Below, in pieces: positions 6,021 through 55,728 of a stretch of DNA of 64,000 nucleotides (its first letter is position 1; every line of letters starts with the position of its first letter). Source of the DNA: Candidatus Limnocylindrales bacterium. GTDB lineage: Bacteria > Chloroflexota > Limnocylindria > Limnocylindrales > CSP1-4. The notes beneath the pieces were generated by a model that searched no databases, was not told the DNA's origin, and saw nothing but the letters and a program-made list of their open reading frames with translations. Made by a program: the position numbers and the translations under genes. The stretch is from positions 53,398 to 117,397 of the forward strand of contig DATFHO010000045.1 of NCBI GenBank assembly GCA_035248345.1. Direction: 5' to 3'.

Positions 6021-6053
6021 CCAGGACGCATCTGCCCCGGCCCCTGGGGCTTC

Positions 6054-6241
6054 GATGTTCGCCTATTGATCATTCTTGGGCGAAGCAGCGTCTCAACGAC
6101 TCCGAAATTCCGTCAGCCTCGGCCCGTAGGCGGGGATTCGTGCTCAGTGAAGGTCGCCGCTCGGTGATCCTGAGGCTCGCGGGCTCACCTTCCGGTCCGT
6201 AGCGCTTCGCTAACCCGCGAAATGATCAATGAGCGAACATT
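6054..6241. repeat. inverted-repeat-bounded element of about 188 bp (copy A; MITE-like or structured RNA)
   Basis: Left arm GATGTTCGCCTATTGATC (6054-6071). The reverse complement of the right arm (6224-6241) is AATGTTCGCTCATTGATC, matching 15/18. The interior is lower in GC than the flanks and holds a nested GCGAAGC/GCTTCGC stem. It lies between convergent gene ends. A second copy with the same termini is at 63011-63185. Confidence 0.55.
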
Positions 6242-6280
6242 CTTGGCGGCAAGGCGGCTGCGGCAGCGATGGGGGAGAGG

Positions 6281-7300
6281 CTAGAGGGCTGAGGAAGGCT
6301 CCCGGACCAGCTCCTCGCGGAACAGCACCGGGCGAACCGCGTCCCACGCGATCCACAGGTCCTCGAGGCCCGCGGCGTGCTCGCCGAGCAGCGTCTGCAT
6401 GGACGGCGCGGAGTATTCCGGCCCCGCTGCGGCGAGCAGCTCCTCGGGCGCGGGTCGGGCACCGACGAACAGGAAGGCGATCTCGGCCTGGTTGGGCCAC
6501 GAGCGGAGCCGGCGCGGCTCGACACCGACGTCGGCCAGCGCGCGGGTCACGTCGCGGTAGACCGGCACGCGCGAATCCGCCCAGCCGTCGGCGCCGTCGT
6601 AGCGGTAGCCCATCGAGGCGAGGGAGCCGGCGATCCGGCGGCACTGCTCCACGGTGAACTGGTCCCAGAAGGGCGTGCCCATCGGGAAGTCGATGACGGA
6701 TTCGCGAATGGCGACCGCGGCCATGCCGTCGACGAGCCCGCCGAGCAGCACCTCCCAGTCGCGGCGGCCCGTGCCGGTGCCCGCCACCTCGTCGACCACC
6801 TCGATCAGGGCGAGATGCTCGCCGCGCAGCATCCGCTCGATGGGTGTGCCGTGGACGACGCGGCGCCGGATGCCCTCGAGCTCGCGCGCCGGCTCGGGCT
6901 GGATCTCGACGGCAACCGCTGGACGAGATGGAACGATCGTTCGATCCGCGACCGCTGCCGCGGCGGGAGCCGGAGCCGCAACGGGCGGAGAAACCGGGAC
7001 CTCGATCGGGATGCCGACGGGCGCGCGGCGGGTCGCGCCGTCCCCGCCGTCGGAGGCCCCATCGCCGGTGCGATCGGCCGTCCGTCGGTCGCCCGGACCG
7101 CCCGGCGCTGGGCCGGTCGACGGCGGCATGAACGCGTCCTGGGACAGCGTTTTCGAACGTGAGGGAACTGCCTCACGGGTCACCGTGACGCGGACGTCGC
7201 GCCGCCCCGTGCCCCTGCCAACGACCAGCAGCAGCGCGGAACCGACGGCAACACCGAGGCAGAGGCCGAGGGCCAGGAAGGCCAGCTCGCTCGCGGTCAC
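6281..7300 (-). CDS. membrane-anchored hypothetical protein (N-terminal TM, Pro/Ala-rich linker, conserved-looking C-terminal domain)
   Basis: ORF 6281..7468. I prefer the GTG at 7300, giving (M)TASELAFLALGLCLGVAVGSALLLVVGRG. The upstream 56 codons are Arg/Pro-rich and contain a good promoter-like motif. The C-terminal 200 aa (ERMLRGEHLALIEVVDE...FWDQFTVEQCRRIAGSLASMGYRYDG) look like a folded domain. Confidence 0.55.
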   Translation of the reverse strand: MTASELAFLALGLCLGVAVGSALLLVVGRGTGRRDVRVTVTREAVPSRSKTLSQDAFMPPSTGPAPGGPGDRRTADRTGDGASDGGDGATRRAPVGIPIEVPVSPPVAAPAPAAAAVADRTIVPSRPAVAVEIQPEPARELEGIRRRVVHGTPIERMLRGEHLALIEVVDEVAGTGTGRRDWEVLLGGLVDGMAAVAIRESVIDFPMGTPFWDQFTVEQCRRIAGSLASMGYRYDGADGWADSRVPVYRDVTRALADVGVEPRRLRSWPNQAEIAFLFVGARPAPEELLAAAGPEYSAPSMQTLLGEHAAGLEDLWIAWDAVRPVLFREELVREPSSAL

Positions 7301-7481: not shown

Positions 7482-9338
7482 GTGAGGTTCAGCTTCGCCT
7501 TGACCCTCGATGTCCGCCAGGAGTTCCTCGTCCAGCCGGTCGATGCTTCCTGGCTCCAGTGCAACATCGAGTGCCAGGAGGCATGCCCTGTCGGCACGAA
7601 CTGCCGCGGCTACCTGAACCTCGCGGCCGAAGGCCGCTTCGAAGAGGGCTACATCCTCTCCCGCGAGCCAAACCCGGTCGCGGCGATGTGCTCCTACGTC
7701 TGCTCCGCCCCATGCGAGCGCGCCTGCCGGCGCGGTGACATCGATCGCCCGCTCGCCATCCGCGCCATGAAGCGGTTCCTCGTCGAGTGGCACGAGGCGT
7801 CCGGCATCCCCGACGTCATGCCCCACATCGAGGCGCGCGCCGAGAAGGTCGCCGTCGTCGGTGCCGGACCCGCCGGGATCGCCGTCGCCCGTGAGCTCGC
7901 GATGAAGGGCTACGGCGTCGACGTCTACGACAGCCTCCCGTTCGCCGGCGGCACGATGCTCATCGGCGTCCCGGCGTTCCGCCTCCCGCGCGAGGCGATC
8001 GAGATGGACGTCAAGCTCGTCGAACGGCTCGGCGTCACGTTCCACTACAACACCAACATCGGCGTCGACATCGCGTTCGACGATCTTCAGAGCCGCTTCG
8101 ACGCCGTGGCGATCACCGCCGGCGCCATGAACGCGGTTGCGCTCGACGTGCCCGGTGGCGACCTGGAAGGCGTCCAGTACGGCGTCGACTTCATGAAGAA
8201 GGCGAACCTCGGCGAGGAGCTCTACGTCGGCAAGGACGTGGTGGTCATCGGCGGTGGGTACACGGCGATGGACTGTTCCCGCACGTCCCTCCGCCACGGC
8301 GCCGAGAATGTCGCGATCGTGTACCGCCGCACGCGCTCCGAGCTGGTCGTGGACGAGGAAGAGCTCGGCGAGACCGAGCGCGAAGGCGTGCGCATGGAGT
8401 TCCTCGCGAGCCCGGTTGAGGTGCTCGGCGAGGACGGCCACGTGGTCGGCGTGAAGTTCATCCGCAACCGCCTCGGCGAGCCCGATGCGTCCGGCCGCCG
8501 CTCGCCGGTGCCGATCGAGGGCTCCGAGTTCGTGATCAAGGCGGACGTCGTGATCCCGGCCGTGTCCCAGGCCGCGGACCTGACCTTCCTCCCGGTCGAG
8601 GCGGACTTCGAGGTCAACCGCGGCCGCGTGAAGGTCGATCCCGCGACGTACGCGACCAACGTCCGCGGCGTCTTCGCCTGCGGTGACTTCGTGACCGGCC
8701 CGACGACGCTCATCGAGGCTGCCGGCCATGGCAAGAAGTGCGCGTACGCGATCGATCGCTACCTCGCTGGCCGAACGGACGTCACGGTCGCGGCGAACGT
8801 GAAGATGTCCAGCCAGTGGACCTTCGAGATGCCCGAGTTCTACGACGTCCTGCCGCGCCAGCACATCCCGATGACCGCGCTCGCCGAGCGGATGCCGTCC
8901 ACGGATCCGGACGTCAACTTCACGACGCAGGTCGAGCGGGGCTACGACGCGACCGCGGCCGTCGCCGAGTCGACGCGCTGCCTGATGTGCAACTACAACA
9001 TCTGGTTCGACCCGTTCCGGTGCACGCTGTGCGGCGCGTGCGCAGATGTGTGCCCCGAGGGCATCATCCACATGGTCGACATCAACACGCTGAAGTCCGA
9101 GGGCCTCCTGACGGAGCTGGACGAGGCGTACGGCTGGCGCGACGGCGCCGCCATGGTGCTCGACGAGGAGCGGTGCATCCGCTGCGCCCTGTGCGTCAAG
9201 CGTTGCCCGTTCGACGCCATTACGATGGAGCGGTTCGAGCTCCAGGAGATCTCGACCGACGGCCGGCTCTACAAGGAGTCGTACCGGGACGCGCAGCTCG
9301 CCGGGACGCCCGGCGTCGCAGGAGGATCGGTTCGTTGA
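7482..9338 (+). CDS. GltD-like NAD(P)H-dependent FAD/FeS oxidoreductase fused to a C-terminal 2x[4Fe-4S] ferredoxin domain; first gene of the Rieske/cyt b operon
   Basis: 618 aa.
- N-terminal Cys clusters: CNIECQEACPVGTNC...CSYVCSAPCERAC, as in the glutamate synthase small subunit.
- Dinucleotide folds: KVAVVGAGPAGIAVA and KDVVVIGGGYTAMD, plus GVFACGD.
- C-terminal ferredoxin motifs: CTLCGACADVCP and CIRCALCVKRCP (CxxCxxCxxxCP, twice).
- No TM segment.
The stop overlaps the TTG start of cytochrome b (TTGA at 9335-9338). Confidence 0.85.
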   Translation: MRFSFALTLDVRQEFLVQPVDASWLQCNIECQEACPVGTNCRGYLNLAAEGRFEEGYILSREPNPVAAMCSYVCSAPCERACRRGDIDRPLAIRAMKRFLVEWHEASGIPDVMPHIEARAEKVAVVGAGPAGIAVARELAMKGYGVDVYDSLPFAGGTMLIGVPAFRLPREAIEMDVKLVERLGVTFHYNTNIGVDIAFDDLQSRFDAVAITAGAMNAVALDVPGGDLEGVQYGVDFMKKANLGEELYVGKDVVVIGGGYTAMDCSRTSLRHGAENVAIVYRRTRSELVVDEEELGETEREGVRMEFLASPVEVLGEDGHVVGVKFIRNRLGEPDASGRRSPVPIEGSEFVIKADVVIPAVSQAADLTFLPVEADFEVNRGRVKVDPATYATNVRGVFACGDFVTGPTTLIEAAGHGKKCAYAIDRYLAGRTDVTVAANVKMSSQWTFEMPEFYDVLPRQHIPMTALAERMPSTDPDVNFTTQVERGYDATAAVAESTRCLMCNYNIWFDPFRCTLCGACADVCPEGIIHMVDINTLKSEGLLTELDEAYGWRDGAAMVLDEERCIRCALCVKRCPFDAITMERFELQEISTDGRLYKESYRDAQLAGTPGVAGGSVR

Positions 9339-10063
9339 GCTTCCTCGAGCGGGTGGACCAGACCATCCGCCGAAGCCCCGTCTGGCGCTCGCTGTTCCGC
9401 AACCCGTATCCGACGGACGAGCGGTCACGCGCCTACGCGGTCATGAACAATGTGTTCCTCCACCTGCACCCGGTGCGGGTCCGGCAGCACGCGGTGAAGT
9501 TCGCCTACACGTTCTGCCTGGGCGGCCTGTCGTTCTTCCTGTTCCTCGTCCTGACCGTGACGGGCGTCTACCTGATGTTCTTCTACATCCCGTCGACGAC
9601 GCACGCGTACACGGACATCCTGAACATCCAGTCGAGCGTGGCGTTCGGGCAGATCACCCGCAACGTGCACCGGTGGGGCGCCCACCTGATGGTGTTCTTC
9701 GTCTTCCTGCACATGATGCGGGTCTTCTACCACGGGGCCTACAAGCCGCCGCGCGAGTTCAACTGGGTCGTCGGCGTGCTGCTCCTGCTCATGACGATCG
9801 CCCTGAGCTTCACCGGCTACCTGCTCCCGTGGGACCAGATCAGCTACTGGGCCATCACGATCGGCCTGAACATGGCGAGCTACACGCCGGTCATCAACAC
9901 GCCGATCCAGAACTTGATCTTCGGTGGCTTGGAGGTCGGGCAGAACACGCTGCTCCGCTTCTACGTGCTCCACATCATGGTCCTGCCGCTCGTGGCAGCC
10001 ATCCTCCTCGCGGTGCACTTCTGGCGCATCCGCAAGGACGGCGGGATCTCCGGGCCGCTGTGA
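9335..10063 (+). CDS. cytochrome b6-type cytochrome b (N-terminal four-helix half; PetB/QcrB-like)
   Basis: TTG at 9335 with GGAGGA 9 nt upstream. Helix B reads HRWGAHLMVFFVFLH (His 14 residues apart). Helix D reads HIMVLPLVAAILLAVH (His 15 apart, b6-type spacing). Also carries the FCLGG motif and WDQISYWA. Confidence 0.9.
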   Translation: MSFLERVDQTIRRSPVWRSLFRNPYPTDERSRAYAVMNNVFLHLHPVRVRQHAVKFAYTFCLGGLSFFLFLVLTVTGVYLMFFYIPSTTHAYTDILNIQSSVAFGQITRNVHRWGAHLMVFFVFLHMMRVFYHGAYKPPREFNWVVGVLLLLMTIALSFTGYLLPWDQISYWAITIGLNMASYTPVINTPIQNLIFGGLEVGQNTLLRFYVLHIMVLPLVAAILLAVHFWRIRKDGGISGPL

Positions 10064-10066
10064 TCC

Positions 10067-10693
10067 ATGACTGACCAAAAGACCGAGCCGCGCGAGTCAC
10101 GCGGCGCGATCCAGCCGGTCGATCCCGCCCGTCGGACGGAGATCGACAAGCAGCGCGTGCCCATGTCCGCGCGGCCGTACCGGCTGCTCGCGATGGTCAA
10201 GCAGGACGCCGTCGTCCGTGTCCAGAAGGAACCGGACGACACGGTCATGACCTGGCCGCACCTGCTCTCGATCGAGTTCCTCGCGGCGGTCGTCATGAGC
10301 ATCTTCCTGCTGCTCATGGGCCTGTTCATCAACGCGCCGCTCGAGGAGCTGGCGAACGCGAACGTCACCCCGCCGGTCGCGAAGGCGCCGTGGTACCTGC
10401 TCGGGCTGCAGGAGATGCTGGCCTACTTCCACCCGGTCATCTCCGGCGTGCTCGTGCCGTTCCTGTACATCCTCGGCGCCGGCTTCATCCTGCCGTACCT
10501 GGACCGGGCAAACATCGAGGCGAAGAAGCCGTCGGATCGGAAAACCGCCGTCGTGCTGTTCAGCCTGCTGTGCGTGCTCGGCCTCATGGTCACGTTCGTG
10601 GGCGTGTTCTTCCGCGGCCCAGGCTACTCGCTCGTGACGCCGTTCCTGCCCTTCTTCGACAACTTCACCAACGGCCTCCACTTCGCCCTGTAA
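10067..10693 (+). CDS. cytochrome b C-terminal half / subunit IV (PetD-like)
   Basis: 208 aa with three TM helices. The Qo-loop region VTPPVAKAPWYLLGLQEMLAYF aligns with the PEWY(F) segment of PetD. Starts 4 nt after the cyt b stop. Confidence 0.85.
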   Translation: MTDQKTEPRESRGAIQPVDPARRTEIDKQRVPMSARPYRLLAMVKQDAVVRVQKEPDDTVMTWPHLLSIEFLAAVVMSIFLLLMGLFINAPLEELANANVTPPVAKAPWYLLGLQEMLAYFHPVISGVLVPFLYILGAGFILPYLDRANIEAKKPSDRKTAVVLFSLLCVLGLMVTFVGVFFRGPGYSLVTPFLPFFDNFTNGLHFAL

Positions 10694-10706: not shown

Positions 10707-11381
10707 ATGAGCAACTACCACCTCGCGCCCGCCGACAAGCCGAAGGCCCTCACGCCGCAGGCCCTCAGATCGCTCCGCCAGGATCCCGTCCAGGGCATCT
10801 CTCGCCGGACGCTGCTCCGCCGCTCGATCGGTGGTGCCGCGCTGCTCTGGCTCACCGAGGTCGCGGCCGGGTCCATCGGCTTCCTGTGGCCGAACACGAA
10901 GGGCGGCTTCGGCAGCGTCATCAAGATCGGCAAGATCGCGGACATCAAGTCCGCGAACTCGTCCATCCCGTTCGCGAACGGCTTCCCGGTGTATTACCAG
11001 GAGGCCCGCGCCTACATCATGCTGGTCGACACGGCCCGCCAGGAGTTCATCCCCGGCGAGGACAAGACCGGCGACGGCACCGCGCTGAACGTCCGTGCGC
11101 TCTACCAGCGCTGCCCGCACCTCGGCTGCAAGCCGAACCCGTGCCTCAAGAACTACTGGTTCGAGTGCCCGTGCCACGGCTCCCGCTACGACCGGCTCGG
11201 GATCAAGGCCCAGGGCGCGCAGTACGGCCCGGCGCCGCGCGGGATGGACCGCTTCTCGATCACGGTCGACGCTGACGGCAACCTGATCGTCGACACGTCG
11301 AAGATCACCCTCGGTCCCCTGCCGATTCCGGTTGGCCAGCCCGGCATCATCCCGCCGAAGAGCCCGGTCGGCTGCATCTGA
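10707..11381 (+). CDS. Rieske [2Fe-2S] protein with Tat-type signal/anchor
   Basis: 224 aa. Twin-arginine region ISRRTLLRRSIGGAALLWL. Cluster boxes CPHLGC and CPCHGSRY. Confidence 0.9.
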   Translation: MSNYHLAPADKPKALTPQALRSLRQDPVQGISRRTLLRRSIGGAALLWLTEVAAGSIGFLWPNTKGGFGSVIKIGKIADIKSANSSIPFANGFPVYYQEARAYIMLVDTARQEFIPGEDKTGDGTALNVRALYQRCPHLGCKPNPCLKNYWFECPCHGSRYDRLGIKAQGAQYGPAPRGMDRFSITVDADGNLIVDTSKITLGPLPIPVGQPGIIPPKSPVGCI

Positions 11382-12442
11382 TGACCGACGAAACGAACCG
11401 CCCGGAAGGGTCGGATCGAAGCCTTCCCGCACGACGCGACGCGGACGCCGGGGTACCGGCGCGGACCGCGGATCGGTTCACGGCGCCGCGCCAGACCCGC
11501 GCCGTCGGCGGGCTGACCTCGGAGCGCGCCGCGAAGATCGTGCGGCAGTCGGGCGACGCCCGCTGGGTGGCGTTCCTCGGGCTCGTGATCGTCGCCCTGT
11601 TCGTCATCGTCTATTACTTCTACGAGCTCGGAGTGCCGATCATCAACACGACGCCGCGCATGCAGGCCGAGGCGGACCTCCAGCAGGTCACCTCCGTCGA
11701 GCGCGGGTACAACCTCTTCGAGGCGAACTGCGCGAAGTGCCACGGCGCGAACGGCGAAGGTGGCGTCGGGCCGGTGCTGAACGACCAGAACAAGCTCTTC
11801 TCGCACCTGACCGAGGCCTACATCCGGAACGTCCTTGAGGTCGGCGGCCGGTATGTCTGCGGCAATCCGAAGAGCGTGATGCCGGTGTGGTCGAACACGA
11901 ACGGCGGGCCGCTGAACTACGTCCAGATCGAGGATCTCATCGCATTCATCCGCGCCGATTCCACGCAGGAATACGTAAAGCGGAGCGCGACGCTGAATGA
12001 GCCGATCATCGGAGATGACGGCAAGGTCGAGACGTTCAAGGGTTGGCGCGACGTGACCTTCAAGCCGGATCCGAGCGCATCGCCGGTTCCGGACTGCTAC
12101 CTCGGCGACAAGGGCTCGGCCACACCGGCACCGGCCGCCTCCCTCGGGCCGGACGCGCCGACCTTCAACGTCGTCGGCCTGAACATCGCCTTCGACAAGA
12201 AGACACTCGACGTCGCCGCCAACACGCCATTCGCGATCGACTTCGACAACCAGGATCCCGCCGGTGTCCAGCACAACGTGGAGATCCGGGACGACACGGG
12301 CCAGGTCCTGCAGGACCAGCCGCTCATCGATGGCGGGCAGAAGACCACCTACGTCTACAGCGGACTGCCGGCCGGCACCTACACGTTCATCTGCAAGGTG
12401 CACCCGATCCCCAACATGACCGGCACCTTGACGGTGAAATAG
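11381..12442 (+). CDS. membrane-anchored monohaem cytochrome c fused to a C-terminal type-1 copper (cupredoxin) domain
   Basis: 353 aa.
- TM anchor: WVAFLGLVIVALFVIVYYFY.
- Haem motif CAKCH, with a distal SVMPVW methionine.
- Pro/Ala linker.
- Cupredoxin ligand set: VQHNVEI ... FICKVHPIPNMTGTLTVK (His, Cys, His, Met).
The ATG overlaps the Rieske stop by 1 nt. Confidence 0.85.
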   Translation: MTDETNRPEGSDRSLPARRDADAGVPARTADRFTAPRQTRAVGGLTSERAAKIVRQSGDARWVAFLGLVIVALFVIVYYFYELGVPIINTTPRMQAEADLQQVTSVERGYNLFEANCAKCHGANGEGGVGPVLNDQNKLFSHLTEAYIRNVLEVGGRYVCGNPKSVMPVWSNTNGGPLNYVQIEDLIAFIRADSTQEYVKRSATLNEPIIGDDGKVETFKGWRDVTFKPDPSASPVPDCYLGDKGSATPAPAASLGPDAPTFNVVGLNIAFDKKTLDVAANTPFAIDFDNQDPAGVQHNVEIRDDTGQVLQDQPLIDGGQKTTYVYSGLPAGTYTFICKVHPIPNMTGTLTVK

Positions 12443-12444
12443 CG

Positions 12445-13983
12445 ATGGCCCGAGCGCTTTCCGCTGGTTCCGTGCGCCATCGACGGACCATGTTCGGCCT
12501 GGTCGACAGCGACGGTTGGGCATGGGCGTCGATCAAGGCGTTCATCTGGCTGATCGTGATCATCATGGTCCTCGGGTACATCCCGGACCGCGCCTACTAC
12601 TTCGTGGTCTCACGCACGATCGACCTCGGGATCATCGGCTGGTCGCCGGTGAACCTCTGCCCGCCCGAGAACACCGCCGCGATGCCGTGCCCCGTTCCGG
12701 CCGGCGCGATCCTGCCGTGGCAGGCCGCGGGTGACGCGGCCGCGCTGCCGGCCGCTCGCTACGGCGGCAACGCGATCCAGCTCGGCTCGAACCTGCTGTA
12801 CGCAGGCGGGTCGGACGCGAGCGGGGCCACCTCGACGACGTACGCAACGAAGCTCGACAAGGGCAACTTCGGACCCTGGACCGAGGGCCCGGCACTGCCC
12901 GAGGCGCGCACCGGCGCAGCCGTCACGACGCTCAGCGGCACCGCCTACATGGTGGGCGGCATCGGCCCGGACGGGAAGCCGACGAAGACCGTGTGGACGC
13001 TCGGACTCGACCCCGATACGAACGCGCTCAAGACGTGGTCGACCGTCTGCACCGTCGCGCTCAAGACGGGCGAGACCTGCGCCAACGACAAGCTCCTGAC
13101 GCTGCCGGACGCGCGGACCGGTTCCTCGATCGTCGCGGTCTCGGACGGCTTGCTCGTGATCGGCGGGCGCGGTGCCGACAACAAGCCGACCTCCACGGTC
13201 TGGAAGTCCACGCTCAACGACAAGGGCGTCCTCGGCGCGTTCGCCGAGCAGCCGGGCCTGCCGCATGCGATCACCGACGCCGCGGCCGGGCTGGAGGGCA
13301 CGTTCGTCTTCGTCTATGGCGGCACCGGCGACAGCGGCCCGGTCGGCGGGGTCATGCGCTCTGCCTACGGGAACGTCACGCCGGCCCTCGCAAGCGGCGC
13401 CCCGACCCCGGATCCGAGCGCGGCACCGGCCCAGGGGATCGTCGGCTGGGCGACGCTCGACGCGGCGAACATGCCCGTCGCTCGAACGGGTGGCGCGGGC
13501 TTCTCGGCCAACGGCGCCATGTACTACGCCGGCGGTTCCGACGGCACGAAGACCTACGGTGACGTCTACTGGGCGCTGCCGGACGCCGCAGGCAACCTCC
13601 CCGGTGGCTGGCACCACCTCGACGCGACGGACCTGCCTGGTGGCCTCGTGAACGCCGCGCCGATCGTGGCCGGGACGAACGTGATCCTCATCGGCGGCCA
13701 GGCGGACGGCGGGGCGCTCACCTCGTCGACGCACGCCTCGCTCGCACCGCAGGAGCCCTTCTTCCGGCTGGGCCTGGTCGGCGCCACGGTTCCGGGCCTC
13801 CAGATCTCGGGTGAGATCGGGCAGCAGCTCGGCTACCTCGCGGCTGCGGGTGTCGGCACCGGCAACTTCGTGATCCTCGTGATCGTCGCGTGGGCGTTCA
13901 ACCACCGACCGCAGATCATGGAGTGGCGCGAGCGCCGCAAGCGCGAGAAGGACGCCAAGGTCCCCTCCGAACCCGAAGCGTAA
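12445..13983 (+). CDS. Kelch-repeat beta-propeller protein bracketed by N- and C-terminal TM helices; last gene of the Rieske/cyt b operon
   Basis: Internal ATG at 12445 of ORF 12043..13983, 2 nt after the previous stop. N-terminal TM is IKAFIWLIVIIMVLGYI. Repeats of the type LYAGGSD.., AYMVGGIGPDGKPT.TVW, LLVIGGRGADNKPTSTVW, FVFVYGG and MYYAGGSDG (Kelch GG..W pattern). C-terminal TM is GNFVILVIVAWAF followed by a Lys/Arg/Glu tail. Confidence 0.75.
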   Translation: MARALSAGSVRHRRTMFGLVDSDGWAWASIKAFIWLIVIIMVLGYIPDRAYYFVVSRTIDLGIIGWSPVNLCPPENTAAMPCPVPAGAILPWQAAGDAAALPAARYGGNAIQLGSNLLYAGGSDASGATSTTYATKLDKGNFGPWTEGPALPEARTGAAVTTLSGTAYMVGGIGPDGKPTKTVWTLGLDPDTNALKTWSTVCTVALKTGETCANDKLLTLPDARTGSSIVAVSDGLLVIGGRGADNKPTSTVWKSTLNDKGVLGAFAEQPGLPHAITDAAAGLEGTFVFVYGGTGDSGPVGGVMRSAYGNVTPALASGAPTPDPSAAPAQGIVGWATLDAANMPVARTGGAGFSANGAMYYAGGSDGTKTYGDVYWALPDAAGNLPGGWHHLDATDLPGGLVNAAPIVAGTNVILIGGQADGGALTSSTHASLAPQEPFFRLGLVGATVPGLQISGEIGQQLGYLAAAGVGTGNFVILVIVAWAFNHRPQIMEWRERRKREKDAKVPSEPEA

Positions 13984-48203: not shown

Positions 48204-49147
48204 GGCACGGCCTCGATGTCGCGATCGCCGGTGATCTCGAGGTAGCGATCCTCGAGGGATGCCGCGCCGGCTCGCAGCTCCACGACGAGCAGGCCTTCTT
48301 TCGCCGCCCAGCTCGTGATCTCGGAGGCGACGTCCGCCGAGGCAGCTCCCGGCTCGATCTCGAAGGCAACGTCGGAGCCCCGGACGGCACGGAGGCGTGA
48401 TTCGCCGTGGAGCGCGGCGATCCGCCGGGCGAGCTGCTGGATGGCCTCGGGCGGGGGCGTCGCATGGAGGCGGAACTTGACGGCGGCGGAGCCGCCCTGG
48501 CTGATCGCGTCGACCGTGTCGTCAATCACGATCCGGCCACGATGGAGGATTGCGACGCGGGTCGCGAGCGCCTCGGCGTCGCCGAGATCGTGCGTCGTCA
48601 TGAGGATCGTGCGGCCCGCGTCGCGCAGTCCTGCGACGAGCGAGCGAGTCTCGCGCCGCGCCGCGGGATCCATGCCCGCGGTGGGCTCGTCGAGGATCAG
48701 CACCTCGGGCTCGCCCGCCAGCGCGATCGCGAGCGCGAGCCGCTGGCGCTCCCCACCGGACAGGCGGCGCACGCGGGTGCCCGCCACCATTGCCAGGCCC
48801 ACCTGGTCGATCAGCTCGTCCGGTAGCGGCCCGCCGCGATGGAAGGCGGCGTACATCCGCACGAGGTCCCGTGGCGTCGCGCGCGGCTCGAGCCCGGCGC
48901 CGCCCTGCAGCATCAGCCCGACCTTCGCCTTGTGCGCCGGCCCGCCGCGGCGCGGGTCCGTCCCGAGCACGCGCACCGTCCCCGCGTCCGGCGTTCGATA
49001 GCCCTCGATCGTCTCGACCGTGGTCGTCTTGCCGGCACCGTTCGGCCCGAGCAAGGCGACCAGCTCACCGGGTCGGACGACGAGGTCGACGCCGTCGAGC
49101 ACGGCCCGATCGCCGTAGGCCATTCGGAGGCCCGAAACCTCGATCAC
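48200..49147 (-). CDS. ABC transporter ATP-binding protein (ABC-2/DrrA/NosF-like subfamily)
   Basis: 315 aa. GTG at 49147 overlaps the TlpA-like stop (GTGA). Contains GPNGAGKTT, LSGGERQRLALAIAL and LILDEPTAGMD. Confidence 0.9.
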   Translation of the reverse strand: MIEVSGLRMAYGDRAVLDGVDLVVRPGELVALLGPNGAGKTTTVETIEGYRTPDAGTVRVLGTDPRRGGPAHKAKVGLMLQGGAGLEPRATPRDLVRMYAAFHRGGPLPDELIDQVGLAMVAGTRVRRLSGGERQRLALAIALAGEPEVLILDEPTAGMDPAARRETRSLVAGLRDAGRTILMTTHDLGDAEALATRVAILHRGRIVIDDTVDAISQGGSAAVKFRLHATPPPEAIQQLARRIAALHGESRLRAVRGSDVAFEIEPGAASADVASEITSWAAKEGLLVVELRAGAASLEDRYLEITGDRDIEAVP

Positions 49148-49668
49148 GGCATCGCCGCTTCCGACGGCGTCGCGATGGGACCGGGAGCGTTGCCGCTGAT
49201 CAGCGCGTACTGCCGCTCGAACTCGTCGTCGGTCAGCTCGCCGACCTGGATCGAGCGGAGGATCCCGTCACGGTCGATGAAGTAGGTCTGTGGCCGCGCC
49301 GCGACGCGATAGGCGGTGCGGATCTGTTTGTCCGGATCGTTCACGGTGGGCCAGGTCGCCGCGTACTGGGCAATGAAGTCCTGCGCGGGCGTGACCGGGT
49401 CGTCCATCAGGACCCCGACGATCGCGATGCCGTTGCTCCCGGCGCTGTATCTGGCGAGCTTGTCCTTGAGCAGCGGAAACTCGTCGCGGCAGGGGACGCA
49501 GCTCGGTCCCCAGAAGTTGACGACGACCGGCCGACCGCGAAGGGCGGCGAGGTCGAACGCCTGACCGTCGAGCGTCGAACCGACGATCCGTGGCGCCGGC
49601 GCGCCCTTGGCGATGAACGGGGCATCGTCGGTGGGGGTCGTGGTCGCGGTCGAGGTGCCCGTCCCCAT
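49144..49668 (-). CDS. TlpA/ResA-like thiol:disulfide oxidoreductase (thioredoxin fold)
   Basis: 174 aa from ATG 49668. Active site VVNFWGPSCVPCRDEFP, plus P.TYFIDRDG. An in-frame TM-like segment lies upstream of the ATG with no canonical start codon (see findings). Confidence 0.8.
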   Translation of the reverse strand: MGTGTSTATTTPTDDAPFIAKGAPAPRIVGSTLDGQAFDLAALRGRPVVVNFWGPSCVPCRDEFPLLKDKLARYSAGSNGIAIVGVLMDDPVTPAQDFIAQYAATWPTVNDPDKQIRTAYRVAARPQTYFIDRDGILRSIQVGELTDDEFERQYALISGNAPGPIATPSEAAMP

Positions 49669-49774: not shown

Positions 49775-50905
49775 CTACTTGACCGTCAGCGTCCCGGTCA
49801 TCGCCGGGATCGGGTGGATGGAGCAGATGTAGGTGTAGGTGCCCGGCTGCAGCGCGTCGTACGTGTACGCCTGCGACTTGCCGCCATCCGTCGGTGCCTG
49901 CTTCTTGAGCACGGAGCCATCGCTCGACCGGAGCTCGACGTCGTGCGGCGTCCCCGGAGCGTCCTCGTTCACGAACCAGATCGTGAAGGGCTTTCCGGCC
50001 GCCGTCTCGAGCGTTTTCTCCTTGTACTCGAGCACCTTTGCCTCGACCGTGAGCGCTCCCGGAGGGGCGCCGGCGGCGCCACCCGGAGCGCCGGAACCCG
50101 CGGGCGCGCCCGAAGCGCCGGGAGTGCCGGTGCCGCCACCTGAGGCCACGGACGCGAAGAAGCCGGCCTGGGTGAGCCCGAGGAGGACGAAGGCCAGCGC
50201 GAAGACCTGCAGCGTCCGCAGCGGGAGCGGGATCGCCGGGATGTTCTCGAGGTGGCCGGTCTTGTCGGCCTCGACCGTCTTGCGGTACTCGGCCGTGGCA
50301 TCGAACAGCCAGCCCAGGAGCGTGTAGACGAGGAAGATCACCGCGAGGATCAGGACCCAGCCGCCGACCACGAGGCCGCCGAGGAGCGCCGCGGACCCGA
50401 GCGCGCCCATGAGCGGACGGATCGACGGGCCCGGCATGTGGACGCCGGGTGGCGGACCCTCGTGGATGACCGCCGGCAGCATCGTCCGGTTCTCGAGTTG
50501 GTCGTAGTCGCGGAGCGCGTCGCGCATCCAGACGGTGAGCGTCAGGGCCATGATCACCGCGCCGATCGCGAGCCAGACGCCGCCGAGCACGAGCCCCAGG
50601 AAGAGCATTGCCCCACCGAAGGCGACGACGATCGGTGCCGCGGAGCCGCCCGGCATGTGCACCGAGGCGGGAGTGATCGGCTGGATGCGGGCGGGAGCAC
50701 GTCGGCTCGGACCGAGCGTCGCGAACTTGCGGAACGTGAATGCGAACCAGGCGATGAACAGGAGCGCCAGCAGGAACGGGAGGAGCGCGATCAGCGCTTT
50801 CCAGTCCGGCATGACGAAGATCGACAGGGTGTCGAGGACCGTCGTGACGAGGTCCTTCGCGGACGCTGCCGCCGATGCTGCTGCGGAAGGCGCTGCCGAC
50901 TCCAC
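49775..50905 (-). CDS. polytopic membrane protein with duplicated HMPGxS two-helix module and C-terminal type-1 copper (cupredoxin) domain
   Basis: 376 aa with about six TM helices.
- Internal repeat: VHMPGGSAAPIVVAFGGAMLFLGLVLGGVWLAIGAVIMALTLTVWMRDALRDY versus VHMPGPSIRPLMGALGSAALLGGLVVGGWVLILAVIFLVYTLLGWLFDATAEY.
- Gly/Ala/Pro linker.
- Cupredoxin ligand set: TPHDVEL ... YICSIHPIPAMTGTLTVK. Confidence 0.8.
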   Translation of the reverse strand: MESAAPSAAASAAASAKDLVTTVLDTLSIFVMPDWKALIALLPFLLALLFIAWFAFTFRKFATLGPSRRAPARIQPITPASVHMPGGSAAPIVVAFGGAMLFLGLVLGGVWLAIGAVIMALTLTVWMRDALRDYDQLENRTMLPAVIHEGPPPGVHMPGPSIRPLMGALGSAALLGGLVVGGWVLILAVIFLVYTLLGWLFDATAEYRKTVEADKTGHLENIPAIPLPLRTLQVFALAFVLLGLTQAGFFASVASGGGTGTPGASGAPAGSGAPGGAAGAPPGALTVEAKVLEYKEKTLETAAGKPFTIWFVNEDAPGTPHDVELRSSDGSVLKKQAPTDGGKSQAYTYDALQPGTYTYICSIHPIPAMTGTLTVK

Positions 50906-50917
50906 GAGAGGCCGGCG

Positions 50918-51103
50918 CTAGTCGCCGAGGCCGGCTTCGAGGACCGCGACGAGGAGTCCCATGGCTGCGCCGAGCGCGATCAGCATCGTGACCCCGGCCC
51001 ACTCGATGTGATAGCCGAGGACCGGCGCGAGCCCACCGTAGACGGCGGCCAGCACGACGCAGCTGATTGCGATGATGACCGCGTTGCGGTGACGTCGAAG
51101 CAT
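50918..51103 (-). CDS. small two-helix membrane protein (candidate oxidase subunit IV-like component)
   Basis: Internal ATG at 51103 of ORF 50918..51481, 15 nt after the ctaE stop. Product: MLRRHRNAVIIAISCVVLAAVYGGLAPVLGYHIEWAGVTMLIALGAAMGLLVAVLEAGLGD. The longer ORF version overlaps ctaE out of frame and is rejected. Confidence 0.5.
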   Translation of the reverse strand: MLRRHRNAVIIAISCVVLAAVYGGLAPVLGYHIEWAGVTMLIALGAAMGLLVAVLEAGLGD

Positions 51104-51117
51104 GTCGTCGATCCTCG

Positions 51118-51750
51118 CTACGGGATCAGGTACAGGATCGAGAAGAGCAGGATCCAGACCACGTCGACGAAGTGCCAGTACAGCGACACCGCCTCGACGG
51201 CGTCGTGGTGCTTCGACGAGAACTGGCCGGCCATGCCGCGGTAGAGGACCACGCCGAGCATCAGCACGCCACCGAACACGTGGGCGCCGTGGAAGCCCGT
51301 GAGCGTGAAGTACGTCGTCCCGAACGCGCCCGACCCGAGCGTCATGCCTTCGCCGAACAGCAGGCTGTAGTCGTAGACCTGCATGATCAGGAAGATGATG
51401 CCGAGCACGAACGTGATCGAAATGTTCCGGATGTAGCCCTTCCGGTCGCCCTTGCGGATCGACCAGACGGCGAACTGGCACGTGAACGAGCTCGTGATCA
51501 GCAGGATGGTGGCCAGCATGATCGGCCCGAGCGGGTCGAGGATGTGCTTGAACGCTGCGGGTGGCCAGGGCTGGTTCGCGGCGCGGGTCGCGAAGTACGC
51601 GGCGAACAGGCCGGAGAAGAACATCACCTCGGAGGTGATGAACAGGATCATCCCGAGGATCGGGTTGCTGATCCCTCGCGAGTGCCCGGCCGCGACCGGA
51701 TGCGCCTCGGCGTGTCCGGCGGCGGTCATGGCGTGTGCTTCAGCGGTCAC
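51118..51750 (-). CDS. ctaE: cytochrome c oxidase subunit III
   Basis: 210 aa with five TM helices. Contains FFSGLFAAYF, FTLTGFHGAHVFGG and the C-terminal EAVSLYWHFVDVVWILLF. Confidence 0.9.
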   Translation of the reverse strand: MTAEAHAMTAAGHAEAHPVAAGHSRGISNPILGMILFITSEVMFFSGLFAAYFATRAANQPWPPAAFKHILDPLGPIMLATILLITSSFTCQFAVWSIRKGDRKGYIRNISITFVLGIIFLIMQVYDYSLLFGEGMTLGSGAFGTTYFTLTGFHGAHVFGGVLMLGVVLYRGMAGQFSSKHHDAVEAVSLYWHFVDVVWILLFSILYLIP

Positions 51751-53456
51751 GAGGCGGAGCCTCCGGCGGGGATCGCCTTCGGCGCGTCGTCGTGGCCGGG
51801 GTCGTCATGGCCGCCGTTGCCGTGGCCGCCCGAGAGGAGGCCGTGGCGCTGGTCGAACAGCGGTCGCTCGGAGCGGATGTCCGGCAGGCGGTCGAAGTTG
51901 TAGGGCGGGGGCGGCGAGGACGTCGCCCACTCGAGCGTGTTGCCCTCCCACGGGTCGTCGCCGGCGATCTTGCCGCCGCGCAGCGACACGAGGACGTTCC
52001 AGATGAACGGCAGCATCGAGATGCCGATGATGAAGCCGCCGATGGTGGCGACGAGGTTCCAGTCGTTCCAGCCGGCGTCGCCCGCGTAGTCCGCGATGCG
52101 CCGCGGCATCCCCGCGAGGCCGAGCATGTGCATCGGGAAGAACGTCAGGTTGAACCCGACGAACATCAGCACGAAGTGGACCTTGCCGAGGGTCTCGTCC
52201 AGCATCCGGCCGGTCATCTTCGGGAACCAGTAGTAGATCCCCGCGAACACGCCGAACGCCGAGCCACCGAAGAGCACGTAGTGCAGGTGCGCGACGACCC
52301 AGTAGGTGTCGTGCAGGGCGAAGTCGACGGGCACGGCGGCGCTGAAGGCACCGTTGATGCCGCCGATCAGGAACATCGTCAGGAAGCCGATGGCGAAGAT
52401 CAGCGGCGTCGAGAACGTCAGCTGGCCCCGGAACATCGTGAAGATCCAGTTGAACATCTTCACGCCGGTCGGGACCGCGATCATGAATGTCATCAGCGCA
52501 AAGAACGGCAGGAACACGGCGCCGGTCGTGAACATGTGGTGCGCCCAGACCGAGAAGCCCAGGGCCCCGATGCCCGCCGTGGCGAAGATGAACGCCTTGT
52601 AGCCGAACAGCGGCTTGCGGCTGAAGACCGGCAGGACCTCGCTGATCACGCCCATCGCGGGCAGGACCATGACGTACACCGCGGGGTGCGAGTAGAACCA
52701 GAACACGTTCTGGTAGAGCACCGGGATGCCGCCCGTCTGGAAGTTGAAGAACGATCCGCCGTAGTTGCGGTCGATGAAGAGCATGACCAGGGCGCTGGTG
52801 ATGACCGGCGTGGCCATGACCACGAGGACGCTCGTCACGAGGACGGTCCAGACCATGATCGGCATGCGGAACAGCGTCATGCCCGGGGCGCGCATCTTGA
52901 AGATGGTGACGAGGAAGTTGATGCCGCCGAGGATGGAGCTCGTCCCGATCAGGACGAGCGACACGATCCACAGGTCCTGGCCGGGGCCTGGGGAGGCGAG
53001 CGCGCCGCGCTCCGTGAGCGGCGGGTAGCTCGTCCAGCCGGCGGCAGCAGCGCCGCCCGGCGTCAGGAAGCCCGCGAGGAGGAGGATGCCGCCGAGCGGC
53101 AGCATCCAGAAGCTCAGCGCGTTGATGCGCGGGAACGCCATGTCCGGCGCGCCGATCTGGAGCGGGACGATGTAGTTCCCGAGCCCGGCGAGCATCGGGA
53201 TGATGAACAGGAAGATCATCACCGTCGCGTGGATCGAGAACGACTCGTTGTAGACGTGCTCGTTCGTGAAGATCTGGATTCCGGGCTGCGCGAGCTCCGT
53301 CCGGACCAGCAGGGCGAAGATGCCGCCGATCAGGAAGAACACGAACGAGTTGATGACGTACATGATCCCGATCTTCTTGTGATCGGTGGTCGTCAGCCAC
53401 TCGTAGATGCCGCCTCGGTAGGCCGTGACGGCGGGGCTCAGCGCGTGGGTCGCCAT
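51747..53456 (-). CDS. ctaD: cytochrome c oxidase subunit I (haem-copper oxidase, A-type)
   Basis: 569 aa. Contains TTDHKKIGIMY, FWFYSHPAVYVMVLP, WAHHMFTTG, HDTYWVVAHLHYVLFGG and FPMHMLGLAGMPRR. Confidence 0.95.
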   Translation of the reverse strand: MATHALSPAVTAYRGGIYEWLTTTDHKKIGIMYVINSFVFFLIGGIFALLVRTELAQPGIQIFTNEHVYNESFSIHATVMIFLFIIPMLAGLGNYIVPLQIGAPDMAFPRINALSFWMLPLGGILLLAGFLTPGGAAAAGWTSYPPLTERGALASPGPGQDLWIVSLVLIGTSSILGGINFLVTIFKMRAPGMTLFRMPIMVWTVLVTSVLVVMATPVITSALVMLFIDRNYGGSFFNFQTGGIPVLYQNVFWFYSHPAVYVMVLPAMGVISEVLPVFSRKPLFGYKAFIFATAGIGALGFSVWAHHMFTTGAVFLPFFALMTFMIAVPTGVKMFNWIFTMFRGQLTFSTPLIFAIGFLTMFLIGGINGAFSAAVPVDFALHDTYWVVAHLHYVLFGGSAFGVFAGIYYWFPKMTGRMLDETLGKVHFVLMFVGFNLTFFPMHMLGLAGMPRRIADYAGDAGWNDWNLVATIGGFIIGISMLPFIWNVLVSLRGGKIAGDDPWEGNTLEWATSSPPPPYNFDRLPDIRSERPLFDQRHGLLSGGHGNGGHDDPGHDDAPKAIPAGGSAS

Positions 53457-53469
53457 GCTCGCTGGCTCC

Positions 53470-54567
53470 TTACTGGACCGTGAGAGTGCCGGTCATGTTG
53501 CTGTGGATCGAGCAGAAGAACGTGTACGTCCCGGCCGCGAGCGGCTGGTACGTGTAGTCCTTCTTCGTGCCGCCGGAGATCGTGTCCTGGTTCTCCACGA
53601 CCGTTCCGGAGCTGTCCTTGACGTCGATGTCGTGCGTGATGCTCGACGGATCCGAGTTGGTGAACTCGATGACGAACGGCGCGTTCGCCGGGGCCGTGAG
53701 CGTCTTCGTCAGGAAGTCGATGTTCTTCGCCTCTTCCTTGAGGACCGGCGCGCCCGACGGCGCCGGCGGCGGCGTCGCGTTCTCGACGGCGACGAGGTTC
53801 TGGAGCCACGCGTCGTAGTCCGCCTGGCTCATCGCGGTGACGCTGAAGAGCATCACGCGGTGGCCCGTGCCGCACAGCTCGGCGCACTGGCCGTGGAACG
53901 TCTGGCCGACCTCGTCCTCGTTCACCGTGAACTCGAACTTGTTGATCTGGCCGGGAATGACGTCGCGCTTGAAGAGGAAGCGCGGCACGTACCAGGCGTG
54001 GATGACGTCGCCGCTGGTGAGCGTGACCTGCACCTTCTTTCCGACAGGGACGGCCATGCCGCCGCCCTCGCCGATCGGCTTCGTCTGGGTGGCGACGTGC
54101 TTGCCCTGGGCGTCGAGGTACTCGAACTGCCACTGGAACTGGCCGGCGATCACGTGGATGCGGACGTCCGGGTTATCGGTCGTCGCATCGACCACGTTCA
54201 GCGTGTTCCACGAAAGCCCGAACAGCACCAGGACGATCGCGGTCGGGATGAGCGTCCACAGGACCTCGACGAAGTTGTTGCCGTGGGTCTGGGGCGGCAG
54301 CTCCGTGTCTTCCGGCCGTCGCCGGTAGCGAAGGATGCTCCAGATGATCAGGCCTTCGACCGCGAGGAAGACCGCGACGGCGATCGCGAACACGATGTCG
54401 TACAGCTCGCTCGTCCTGACCGCCTGCGCGGTCGCCGGGGCCGGCGGATAGAGCGATCGACCGGCGCCGCTCAGGAAGACGACCGCGACGATGGCGACCA
54501 GGAGGGCGACGGCACCGCCCGCGACGATTGCGCTGGAGGCGGGGCGCTTCCTCGGGCTGCTCGACAT
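53470..54567 (-). CDS. ctaC: cytochrome c oxidase subunit II with an additional C-terminal type-1 copper (cupredoxin) domain
   Basis: 365 aa.
- Two TM helices.
- CuA site: DVIHAWYVP ... GQCAELCGTGHRVM.
- Pro-rich linker.
- Second cupredoxin: ITHDIDV ... FFCSIHSNMTGTLTVQ (His, Cys, His, Met). Confidence 0.9.
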   Translation of the reverse strand: MSSSPRKRPASSAIVAGGAVALLVAIVAVVFLSGAGRSLYPPAPATAQAVRTSELYDIVFAIAVAVFLAVEGLIIWSILRYRRRPEDTELPPQTHGNNFVEVLWTLIPTAIVLVLFGLSWNTLNVVDATTDNPDVRIHVIAGQFQWQFEYLDAQGKHVATQTKPIGEGGGMAVPVGKKVQVTLTSGDVIHAWYVPRFLFKRDVIPGQINKFEFTVNEDEVGQTFHGQCAELCGTGHRVMLFSVTAMSQADYDAWLQNLVAVENATPPPAPSGAPVLKEEAKNIDFLTKTLTAPANAPFVIEFTNSDPSSITHDIDVKDSSGTVVENQDTISGGTKKDYTYQPLAAGTYTFFCSIHSNMTGTLTVQ

Positions 54568-54711: not shown

Positions 54712-55728
54712 GTGACCTCTCGCCGATCGCTCGCCGCCACGCTCGCGTCGGCGGTGCTGGCGATCGCGGCCGCCGTCACCCTCCCGGCCGTTGCGCTCGC
54801 GCATGGCGCGGTCCCGCCCGACCCCCCGACGTTCCTCAACATCCTCTTCGACTGGAACTTCGAGCCGCTCGTCGCGGGCGGGCTGCTCGTGTCCGCGCTC
54901 GCGTGGCTCTGGATCGTCCGGCGCGTCGGACGGCTGCATCCGGGCCATGGCGTGCCGATCGGCCGGTCGGCGGCGTTCTTCGGCGGGCTGTTCGCGATCG
55001 CCGTTGCGCTGATGTCCGGCATCGAGCGCTACGACACGACGTTGTTCTCGCTGCACATGGTCCAGCACCTGCTGCTGATGCTGGTTGCTGCACCGCTGCT
55101 CGTGCTGGCGGCGCCCGTCACGCAGCTGCTGCGCGCCTCATCCGCCGAGGTGCGGCAGCGGCGGCTCATTCCCGTCCTGCACTCCGGCGTCGTCGCCGCG
55201 CTCGGGCACCCGGTCGTGACGTGGCTCACCTTCAGCCTGGTCCTGTGGCTGTCGCACTTCTCGCCGTTCTTCAACGATGCGCTCGAGGATCGCGGCGTCC
55301 ACGACGCCGAGCACGCGATCTACCTGGTCGCGTCGCTGCTCTTCTGGTGGCCGGCGATCGCCATGGATCCGGCCCGCCGGCGCATGCCGCACGCGGTCCG
55401 CGTGCTGTACGTGCTGCTGCAGCTGCCGGTGAACTCCTTCGTCGGCATGGCGATCACGTTCGCCGACTCGCCGCTCTACCCGCACTACGCGACGCTGAAC
55501 GCGCCGTACGGGATCTCGGCGCTCGCCGACCAACAGATCGCGGGCGGGACGATGTGGCTCGCCGGCGACATCGTGTTCATCGGGGCGATCCTGCTGATCG
55601 TCGGCGCGTGGATGCGCCACGAGGAGCGCGATGCGCCGGCGGCGGAACGGCGAGCCGATGCGCAGCGGGCCGCCCTGGCCGAGCGCGCCGACCAGCTCGC
55701 CCGCGCCCGCGCCGAGGGCCGCCGCTAG
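54712..55728 (+). CDS. ctaG: cytochrome c oxidase assembly factor CtaG (Bacillus caa3-CtaG type membrane protein)
   Basis: GTG at 54712 within ORF 53425..55728. Signal-like N-terminus, then seven or more TM helices with HMVQHLLLM, HPVVTW and GGTMWLAGD. Divergent from ctaC. Confidence 0.75.
   Translation: MTSRRSLAATLASAVLAIAAAVTLPAVALAHGAVPPDPPTFLNILFDWNFEPLVAGGLLVSALAWLWIVRRVGRLHPGHGVPIGRSAAFFGGLFAIAVALMSGIERYDTTLFSLHMVQHLLLMLVAAPLLVLAAPVTQLLRASSAEVRQRRLIPVLHSGVVAALGHPVVTWLTFSLVLWLSHFSPFFNDALEDRGVHDAEHAIYLVASLLFWWPAIAMDPARRRMPHAVRVLYVLLQLPVNSFVGMAITFADSPLYPHYATLNAPYGISALADQQIAGGTMWLAGDIVFIGAILLIVGAWMRHEERDAPAAERRADAQRAALAERADQLARARAEGRR

Follow-up and report, generated by a model that had tools for sequence, protein, structure and literature searches.

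A type-1 cupredoxin domain fused to the C-terminal end of cytochrome c oxidase subunit II in Limnocylindria (Chloroflexota)

The coxB-cupredoxin gene (coxB-cup) is predicted to encode a 365 amino acid (aa) subunit II of a cytochrome c oxidase. It is present in a 64-kb stretch of DNA, termed here the window, from a member of the class Limnocylindria (Chloroflexota) that originates from rhizosphere or soil; gene calls were made on the source metagenome contig, which is 162 kb long. The gene is a single open reading frame (ORF), from ATG to stop codon, at positions 53470..54567 of the minus strand. A preliminary description had given this ORF without a strand, which is added here, and the sequences quoted in it, i.e. 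CAELCGTGHRVM, the PPPAPSGAP linker and FVIEFTNSDPSSITHDIDV...GTYTFFCSIHSNMTGTLTVQ, are all found in the sequence. The translated sequence displays three Pfam domains in N- to C-terminal order: COX2_TM at aa positions 43–115 (E-value = 1.3e-11), COX2 at positions 171–244 (4.2e-17) and Cupredoxin_1 at positions 272–364 (1.7e-13; 50.9 bits against a cut-off of 27). A weaker match to the plastocyanin/azurin family is also found in the C-terminal domain.

The N-terminal part of the protein is that of a typical subunit II. A hydrophobic helix at aa positions 10–33 (nt 54469-54540, from the AlphaFold2 model) precedes the two transmembrane helices, which are at positions 43–126 (nt 54190..54441) and are seen in the model as helices 47–80 and 98–126, in agreement with COX2_TM. 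The CuA domain that follows is at positions 135–262 (nt 53782..54165), supported by the Pfam COX2 match. It has the complete ligand pattern H...C-x-E-x-C-x3-H-x2-M, made up of H190, C228, E230, C232, H236 and M239 (nt 53851-54000), and the invariant tryptophan, W146 (nt 54130-54132). With two N-terminal transmembrane helices followed by a periplasmic domain of cupredoxin fold, the protein genuinely belongs to the CuA subunit II family.

The CuA domain is joined to the C-terminal domain by a 12-residue proline-rich linker, NATPPPAPSGAP, at aa positions 263–274 (nt 53746..53781). The linker is non-regular in the model and lies between the C-terminal helix of the CuA domain (248–262) and the strand at 275–280. 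The module beyond it consists of 91 residues at positions 275–365 (nt 53473..53745), and is supported by Pfam, the AlphaFold2 model and a profile search. It directly follows the periplasmic CuA domain and there is no intervening helix, thus it is located on the periplasmic side, at the outer face of the membrane. The type-1 (T1) copper ligands are H312 (nt 53632-34), C352 (53512-14), H355 (53503-05) and M358 (53494-96), the last three of which form a C-x2-H-x2-M copper loop with H312 upstream. There are three cysteines in the whole of subunit II, two at CuA and one at the T1 site. A CxxCH heme motif is absent from the entire sequence, and the C-terminal cytochrome c that defines caa3 oxidases is therefore not present.

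Both sequence and fold identify the module as a true type-1 cupredoxin. Modelled alone it gives a predicted local distance difference test score (pLDDT) of 97.9 and forms a Greek-key beta-sandwich of eight strands; within the full-length model its pLDDT is above 90. The Pfam match, the complete and conserved ligand set and the model confidence bear out the earlier proposal that a second, type-1 cupredoxin follows CuA. In a sequence profile search the best matches are auracyanin A (2aan, 2e-13), Roseiflexus auracyanin (6kol, 6e-10) and auracyanin B (1ov8, 3e-9), which align in two separated stretches, and plastocyanins and amicyanins rank after them. Foldseek assigns the model to cupredoxins with a probability of 1.00. 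The best template modelling (TM) scores are with auracyanin B (0.85), azurin loop variants (0.84) and other auracyanins (0.82), and the lowest E-values are with small proteins of the Cupredoxin_1 family. The module is auracyanin-like. More distant structural neighbors include AcoP (TM score 0.71), and FtrB and EfeO, cupredoxin-like proteins that handle copper and iron, are also among the neighbors.

A Foldseek comparison of the full-length model returns ordinary subunit II chains only (1e-16). Among solved subunit II structures, the CuA part comes nearest to subunit IIc of the Thermus caa3 oxidase (2yev_B), in an alignment that covers only positions 54–268 of the query, and none of the solved subunit II matches reaches beyond residue 268. 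Together with the finding that some close representatives carry a C-terminal CxxCH motif and others a cupredoxin, this agrees with the original placement of the domain where caa3 oxidases have their cytochrome c.

Close homologs (n = 29; 69–87% identity) show no variation at any of the CuA or T1 ligands. Among 20 distant homologs, with identities down to 31%, H190, C228, C232, H236, M239 and H312 are invariant, and E230, C352, H355 and M358 are each kept in at least 90%. This conservation indicates purifying selection on the module. The ligand conservation and the fold confidence exclude a decayed or chance domain. A frameshift or an assembly chimera is likewise excluded, since this ORF recurs on independent contigs and in hundreds of genomes. 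Subunit II very probably contains a real copper-binding T1 domain. Short contigs of rhizosphere metatranscriptomes with 90–96% identity cover the cupredoxin part, and one of them spans the junction of CuA, linker and cupredoxin; these are modest evidence that close relatives express the fusion.

The coxB-cup gene is the first of a minus-strand operon with the order coxB-cup, coxA, coxC, a 61-aa ORF, a CtaF-like-cupredoxin gene and a TlpA-like redoxin gene. The coxA gene (51747..53456) encodes a subunit I of 569 aa (Pfam COX1, 4.8e-162) and coxC (51118..51750) a subunit III of 210 aa (COX3, 3.6e-40). Both are immediately downstream of coxB-cup and are syntenic in all related loci, in the case of coxC wherever the locus reaches it. 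The 61-aa ORF (50918..51103) is a called gene with two predicted helices and no family match, and may represent an extra small oxidase subunit. At the end of the operon is a gene for a TlpA/ResA-like thiol-disulfide oxidoreductase (49144..49668; AhpC-TSA 2.3e-20, and Redoxin), which is also syntenic. On the other side of coxB-cup, a divergent plus-strand gene at 54754..55728 encodes an oxidase assembly factor of the Caa3_CtaG type (PF09678).

The CtaF-like gene (49775..50905, minus strand) encodes a subunit IV with about six transmembrane helices and a second cupredoxin at the C-terminal end. The gene caller places its start at 50812, not at 50905. Pfam recognizes Cyt_c_ox_IV (PF12270; 1.6e-11, 44.8 bits against a cut-off of 26.9) and Cupredoxin_1 (2.3e-8), the latter for the module at 49778-50050, which is preceded by a long Gly/Ala/Pro tether. 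The gene is found in every Limnocylindria locus whose contig extends to it. In the membrane part, at aa positions ~80–175, an "HMPG..." segment occurs twice, each time ahead of a helical hairpin, and two stretches of this part match Cyt_c_ox_IV. The subunit IV fold thus appears to be duplicated ahead of the cupredoxin tether, and a reading of the sequence by the positive-inside rule suggests six helices with the C-terminal end outside.

Subunit I has the motif FWFYSHPAVY, compared with FWFFGHPEVY in the A1 enzymes of actinobacteria. The presence of Tyr-Ser in place of the helix VI glutamate distinguishes A2 from A1 oxidases, and by the YSHP motif and this rule the oxidase is classed as A2-type. 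The best PDB match of subunit I is CtaD of the actinobacterial supercomplex (674 bits), with the Thermus caa3 oxidase at 535 bits.

A second operon, on the plus strand and 40 kb from the oxidase operon, encodes a Rieske/cytochrome b6 complex. Gene calls and Pfam identify cytochrome b6 (9335-10063), a PetD-like subunit IV (10067-10693) and the Rieske protein (10707-11381). These are followed at 11381..12442 by a gene for a membrane-anchored monoheme cytochrome c with a third cupredoxin at its C-terminal end (Cytochrom_C 4.5e-9, Cupredoxin_1 2.6e-10; module at 12155-12439). There is a single CxxCH motif (CAKCH) at residue 117, then a flexible tether and the cupredoxin; the module thus comes after an exported heme domain. 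The best match of the heme region is actinobacterial QcrC, a weak and local similarity at residues 85–127 (5e-7). The preliminary description had proposed a matching tethered cupredoxin on the bc-type complex, and it is this cytochrome c subunit that carries it, the two systems co-occurring throughout the class. Within the window no further cupredoxin and no further credible c-type cytochrome are present.

The first gene of the Rieske/cytochrome b6 operon (7482-9338, plus strand) encodes a 618-aa GltD-like iron-sulfur flavoprotein with Fer4_20 and Pyr_redox_2 domains and two 4Fe-4S ferredoxin motifs. It overlaps the cytochrome b6 gene by 4 nt and is found in this position in 57/57 Limnocylindria loci. 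A quinol-oxidizing complex that incorporates an NAD(P)-type flavoprotein is reminiscent of the unusual Rieske/cytochrome b complexes of anammox bacteria, and the flavoprotein could be related to electron bifurcation or reverse flow. Directly 3′ of the cytochrome c-cupredoxin gene is a gene for a 497-aa Kelch-like beta-propeller protein (12490-13983, plus strand), which shows only faint Pfam Kelch matches but is kept in 60/60 loci.

The three cupredoxin modules of the window are clearly related. By alignment, the CoxB module is 42% identical to the C-terminal end of the 49775-50905 product and 50% identical to that of the 11381-12442 product. The position-by-position correspondence noted earlier holds apart from a difference of two residues in a loop, and there are no other internal gaps. 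Thirty-three columns are invariant across the three, including the His, Cys, His and Met ligands. The consensus pattern proposed for them also stands except at two positions, where "H.V" is HDI, HDV or HNV and "IH" is IH, IH or VH. In modules from other genomes the four ligands are kept in 47/47 CoxB, 37/37 CtaF-like and 53/54 cytochrome c fusions. A neighbor-joining tree of the three module families (95 columns, 100 bootstraps) gives no clean clades; the best F1 values per family are 0.78, 0.72 and 0.52, without support.

Orthologs of one and the same fusion differ in the copper-loop spacer between His and Met, which is 2 to 5 residues long. In the window, CoxB has the short, amicyanin-like C-x2-H-x2-M loop and its two paralogs have C-x2-H-x4-M. 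Such variation may tune redox potentials along the relay proposed below.

The presence of assembly genes at the oxidase operon, i.e. those for Caa3_CtaG and the TlpA-like redoxin, with no Sco or PCuAC gene within ~10 kb, could suggest that the domain is a copper-handling chaperone, store or sensor for CuA/CuB assembly, comparable to PCuAC or Sco, and the occurrence of FtrB and EfeO among the structural neighbors is in line with this. However redox type-1 sites have just such a His/Cys/His/Met set, with a C-x2-H-x(2-5)-M loop. The PCuAC motif, H(M)x10Mx21HxM (PMC9145763), is absent from subunit II, and the site includes Cys352, unlike PCuAC, which has no cysteine ligand. The same module is also found on the cytochrome c of a bc-type complex, which has no copper center to mature, and the best sequence relatives (auracyanin, plastocyanin, amicyanin) are bona fide electron carriers. 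A role in copper handling is thus highly improbable.

The fused cupredoxin is, by analogy with caa3 oxidases, probably a tethered copper electron entry to CuA. The T1 domain would take the role of the fused cytochrome c of those enzymes, accepting one electron at the T1 copper and passing it to CuA, from there to heme a and then to the a3-CuB center. The likely upstream donors would be the two paralogous cupredoxins on long flexible tethers, one arm being that of the monoheme cytochrome c subunit of the Rieske/cytochrome b6 complex, the other that of the CtaF-like subunit IV of the oxidase itself. The path would run from quinol to the Rieske iron-sulfur center, heme c, the T1 copper of the bc complex, the T1 copper of the oxidase and CuA, i.e. 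a membrane-tethered copper relay would stand in place of a soluble cytochrome c. The logic would be that of caa3 oxidases and of the actinobacterial diheme QcrC, copper taking the place of heme. Architecture, ligands, fold, periplasmic location, conservation and co-occurrence are seen in the data, whereas copper in the T1 site, the partners between which electrons pass and in which direction, and any stable III-IV supercomplex are inferred. That the bc-borne module is the donor, or that the supercomplex is obligate, is less likely than the electron entry role as such.

The tethers differ in composition. In the 30 residues before the module, Pro, Ala, Gly, Ser and Thr make up ~80% in the cytochrome c and CtaF-like fusions and 52% in CoxB, where the ~34 residues between the last CuA ligand and the module are mostly helix. 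These compositions would fit two mobile arms and one resident acceptor. The three cupredoxins and the monoheme cytochrome c might on the other hand not be swinging carriers but a fixed wire, built into an obligate supercomplex of the III2-IV2 type such as Actinobacteria have. The CtaD of these obligate supercomplexes is the closest match of CoxA, and a CtaF-family subunit is present; the cytochrome c part is QcrC-like, with the second heme domain replaced here by a cupredoxin, and the window has no free carrier. The low-complexity tethers on two of the modules suggest mobility instead. The two operons lie 40 kb from each other and are not co-transcribed, and the bc part, with its split b6/PetD and extra flavoprotein-iron-sulfur subunit, is unlike QcrABC. 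A fixed wire of this kind seems rather unlikely.

Both operons are conserved across the class Limnocylindria. More than 2000 database proteins match coxB-cup, and the best 120 of these all have the three domains; all are annotated simply as "cytochrome c oxidase subunit II". The block of coxB-cup, coxA, coxC, CtaF-like-cupredoxin and TlpA genes is present in every related locus that is long enough, including those in which CoxB identity is as low as 48%. Seventy-nine genome loci contain the cytochrome c-cupredoxin gene, and its six-gene operon is kept in 57/57 to 64/64 of the eligible loci. The two systems are found together in several metagenome-assembled genomes (MAGs), in some cases on a single contig.

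An exhaustive search of 1.8 billion representatives reveals a diverse fusion that falls into ~23 groups sharing less than 45% identity with one another. Among the 150 closest representatives, at least 33 have CuA followed by the module, 11 have CuA followed by a C-terminal CxxCH, 25 are plain, and a few have two cupredoxins. Tandem cupredoxins occur in some subunit II proteins (P0164 and P0184, with two modules each), and one Thermomicrobiales family (P0253/P0278) displays CuA, then a CxxCH cytochrome c and then a cupredoxin. The tandem and doubly fused proteins could be intermediates or elaborations of a domain swap.

The search across phyla that had been suggested for a C-terminal cupredoxin on CoxB shows the fusion to be widespread in Actinomycetota as well as class-wide in Limnocylindria. 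Genome scans with two divergent members of the fusion gave 318 matching stretches, from which 82 loci were fetched. CuA with the module is present in 72 of the 82, followed by coxA and coxC, and a CtaG gene is close by in 58 of these 72. Carriers include Acidimicrobiia and MAGs labelled Jatrophihabitans, Nocardioides, Streptosporangiaceae, Micromonosporaceae and Gaiellaceae. Neither a CtaF-like-cupredoxin fusion nor an adjacent cytochrome c-cupredoxin was detected at these Actinomycetota loci, thus the proposed partner is not universal.

At least eight of the Actinomycetota loci (L134, L135, L138, L140, L149, L151, L154 and L155) have, immediately upstream of the fused coxB, a gene for a 440–520-aa protein with two or three tandem cupredoxin modules. 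It occupies the ~1.5 kb directly upstream, near position 5300-6900 of the locus, and the protein may be a multi-copper electron wire. Fusions of the actinobacterial type (P0145, P0149, P0154, P0184, P0242) also display a lipoprotein-like N-terminal sequence, …L[ST]AC…, and a conserved pair of cysteines, one in the linker and one where the first strand of the module ends, which probably form a disulfide staple. The Limnocylindria proteins have neither feature. Outside these phyla, MAGs of methanogens labelled Methanosarcinales and Methanoregula (L126-L128) encode the same type of module in secreted single- or multi-domain proteins that have no oxidase part.

The cupredoxin could alternatively be an entry for donors other than the bc-type complex, e.g. 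a soluble or extracellular chain, or an exit branch, in which case its likeness to the bc-borne module would reflect common ancestry only. The Actinomycetota fusions, which have no adjacent cytochrome c-cupredoxin and are often preceded by the protein with two or three tandem cupredoxins, suggest other copper wires. The methanogen proteins place the same module in non-respiratory contexts, and AcoP, at a TM score of 0.71, is among the structural neighbors. In Limnocylindria however the oxidase and bc operons are both class-wide and co-occurring, and no outer-membrane or multiheme iron-oxidation genes are seen in either neighborhood. The 42–50% identity and identical ligand geometry of the three modules also fit partners of similar potential. 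We regard donors of another kind, or an exit branch, as unlikely.

The tethered entry to CuA is the preferred reading, and several observations weigh against it. The 12-residue linker allows docking of the T1 domain on CuA but does not prove it. The window covers only 64 kb, and soluble cytochromes c or free cupredoxins may be encoded elsewhere in the genome. Three tethered cupredoxins exceed the needs of a simple relay, which does not account for the copy on the CtaF-like subunit. In Actinomycetota the fusion occurs with no detectable CtaF-cupredoxin or adjacent cytochrome c-cupredoxin. The metatranscriptome contigs are short and only 90–96% identical, and could stem from DNA carry-over. More tentatively, and on balance doubtfully, the three auracyanin-like domains might constitute a tethered "copper wire" free of any soluble carrier in Limnocylindria, with a related form in many soil Actinomycetota and possibly a new III-IV supercomplex, which would make respiration unusually copper-dependent.

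Among known systems the caa3 oxidases (Thermus thermophilus, 2YEV; CtaC in Bacillus) are similar in belonging to the A family and in having an extra C-terminal one-electron carrier after CuA on the periplasmic side. The A2-type YSHP in subunit I, the match of the CuA part to Thermus subunit IIc and the adjoining Caa3_CtaG gene are further likenesses. The carrier here is however a mononuclear type-1 copper cupredoxin and not a heme c domain. In addition, subunits I and III are encoded by separate genes, subunit I is nearer to actinobacterial CtaD, and a second cupredoxin is present on the CtaF-like subunit.

The bcc-aa3 supercomplex of actinobacteria (Mycobacterium, Corynebacterium) has the closest solved subunit I, a subunit IV of the CtaF family (PF12270) and a membrane-anchored cytochrome c, QcrC, which there bridges the iron-sulfur center and CuA without a soluble carrier and which the cytochrome c described here resembles. 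QcrC is however diheme, whereas the present protein has one heme and one cupredoxin. The actinobacterial oxidase is A1 (Glu) and the present one A2 (Tyr-Ser), cytochrome b is split here into b6 and PetD with an added flavoprotein-iron-sulfur subunit, and the counterparts of CtaC and CtaF carry cupredoxins.

Other Chloroflexi have auracyanins, blue-copper respiratory or photosynthetic carriers that are tethered or soluble; auracyanin B is membrane-tethered and has been assigned to respiratory electron transfer (PMC3150298). Auracyanins A and B (Chloroflexus, Roseiflexus) share with the module the phylum and the type-1 His2CysMet site, and they give its best profile matches. They are free-standing proteins of ~140 aa that work with Alternative Complex III, whereas the module has ~93 aa and is fused to oxidase and bc subunits, with a Rieske/b6 complex as quinol oxidizer.

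Blue-copper donors to aa3-type oxidases are known in acidophiles. During Fe(II) oxidation in Acidithiobacillus, rusticyanin and AcoP feed the aa3 oxidase. In the SoxM supercomplex of Sulfolobus, with sulfocyanin, and in the Acidithiobacillus rus operon, with rusticyanin and AcoP, blue copper connects the CuA subunit of an aa3-type oxidase with either a Rieske/cytochrome b module or a donor further upstream (PMC3750248; 10.1101/2020.03.01.968255). These differ from the present case in that the cupredoxins are separate polypeptides of other subfamilies and the organisms belong to other, acidophilic lineages. Separate blue-copper genes beside coxB have been described in Acidithiobacillus (10.1101/2020.03.01.968255) and in Ca. 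Angelarchaeales (PMC9038741).

The nearest precedent for the design is the halocyanin-CbaD fusion of haloarchaeal ba3 oxidases, where CbaD is subunit IIa, e.g. OE_4073R of Halobacterium. The fusion is uncharacterized and has been read as evidence that a cupredoxin is the oxidase donor (PMC3128077, PMC8305020). Here too a terminal heme-copper oxidase has a blue-copper carrier attached covalently to one of its membrane subunits. The haloarchaeal oxidase is however archaeal and of the B family, its cupredoxin is N-terminal to a single-helix accessory subunit rather than C-terminal to the CuA subunit, and there are no paralogous modules on complex III. The comparison made here is one of architecture.

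No fusion of CoxB/CtaC with a cupredoxin was found in the literature searched, from which subscription journals were mostly absent. The fusion is likewise unmentioned in a genomic study of Limnocylindria (PMC13212565) and in a review of the diversity of oxidase assembly (PMC9145763), and no solved structure with a subunit II-cupredoxin architecture was found. Two principles were known before, the fusion of a carrier to the oxidase (caa3) and the use of free blue-copper carriers (auracyanin, halocyanin, sulfocyanin, rusticyanin). Their combination in an A-family oxidase is apparently undescribed, but is widely recorded by automated pipelines, the annotations of which conceal oxidase variants of this kind.

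The fusion is not rare: it extends over an entire class of Chloroflexota, abundant in both soils and freshwaters, as well as many Actinomycetota that are uncultured. Should the domain be the electron entry, the enzyme would represent a new oxidase subtype, "cupredoxin-aa3", and would provide a natural system for electron transfer from T1 copper to CuA within one polypeptide. It would also suggest a route by which a cytochrome c domain is swapped for a copper domain, as members of the Thermomicrobiales have both. Respiration in these dominant soil bacteria would have a higher copper demand and hence a greater sensitivity to copper.

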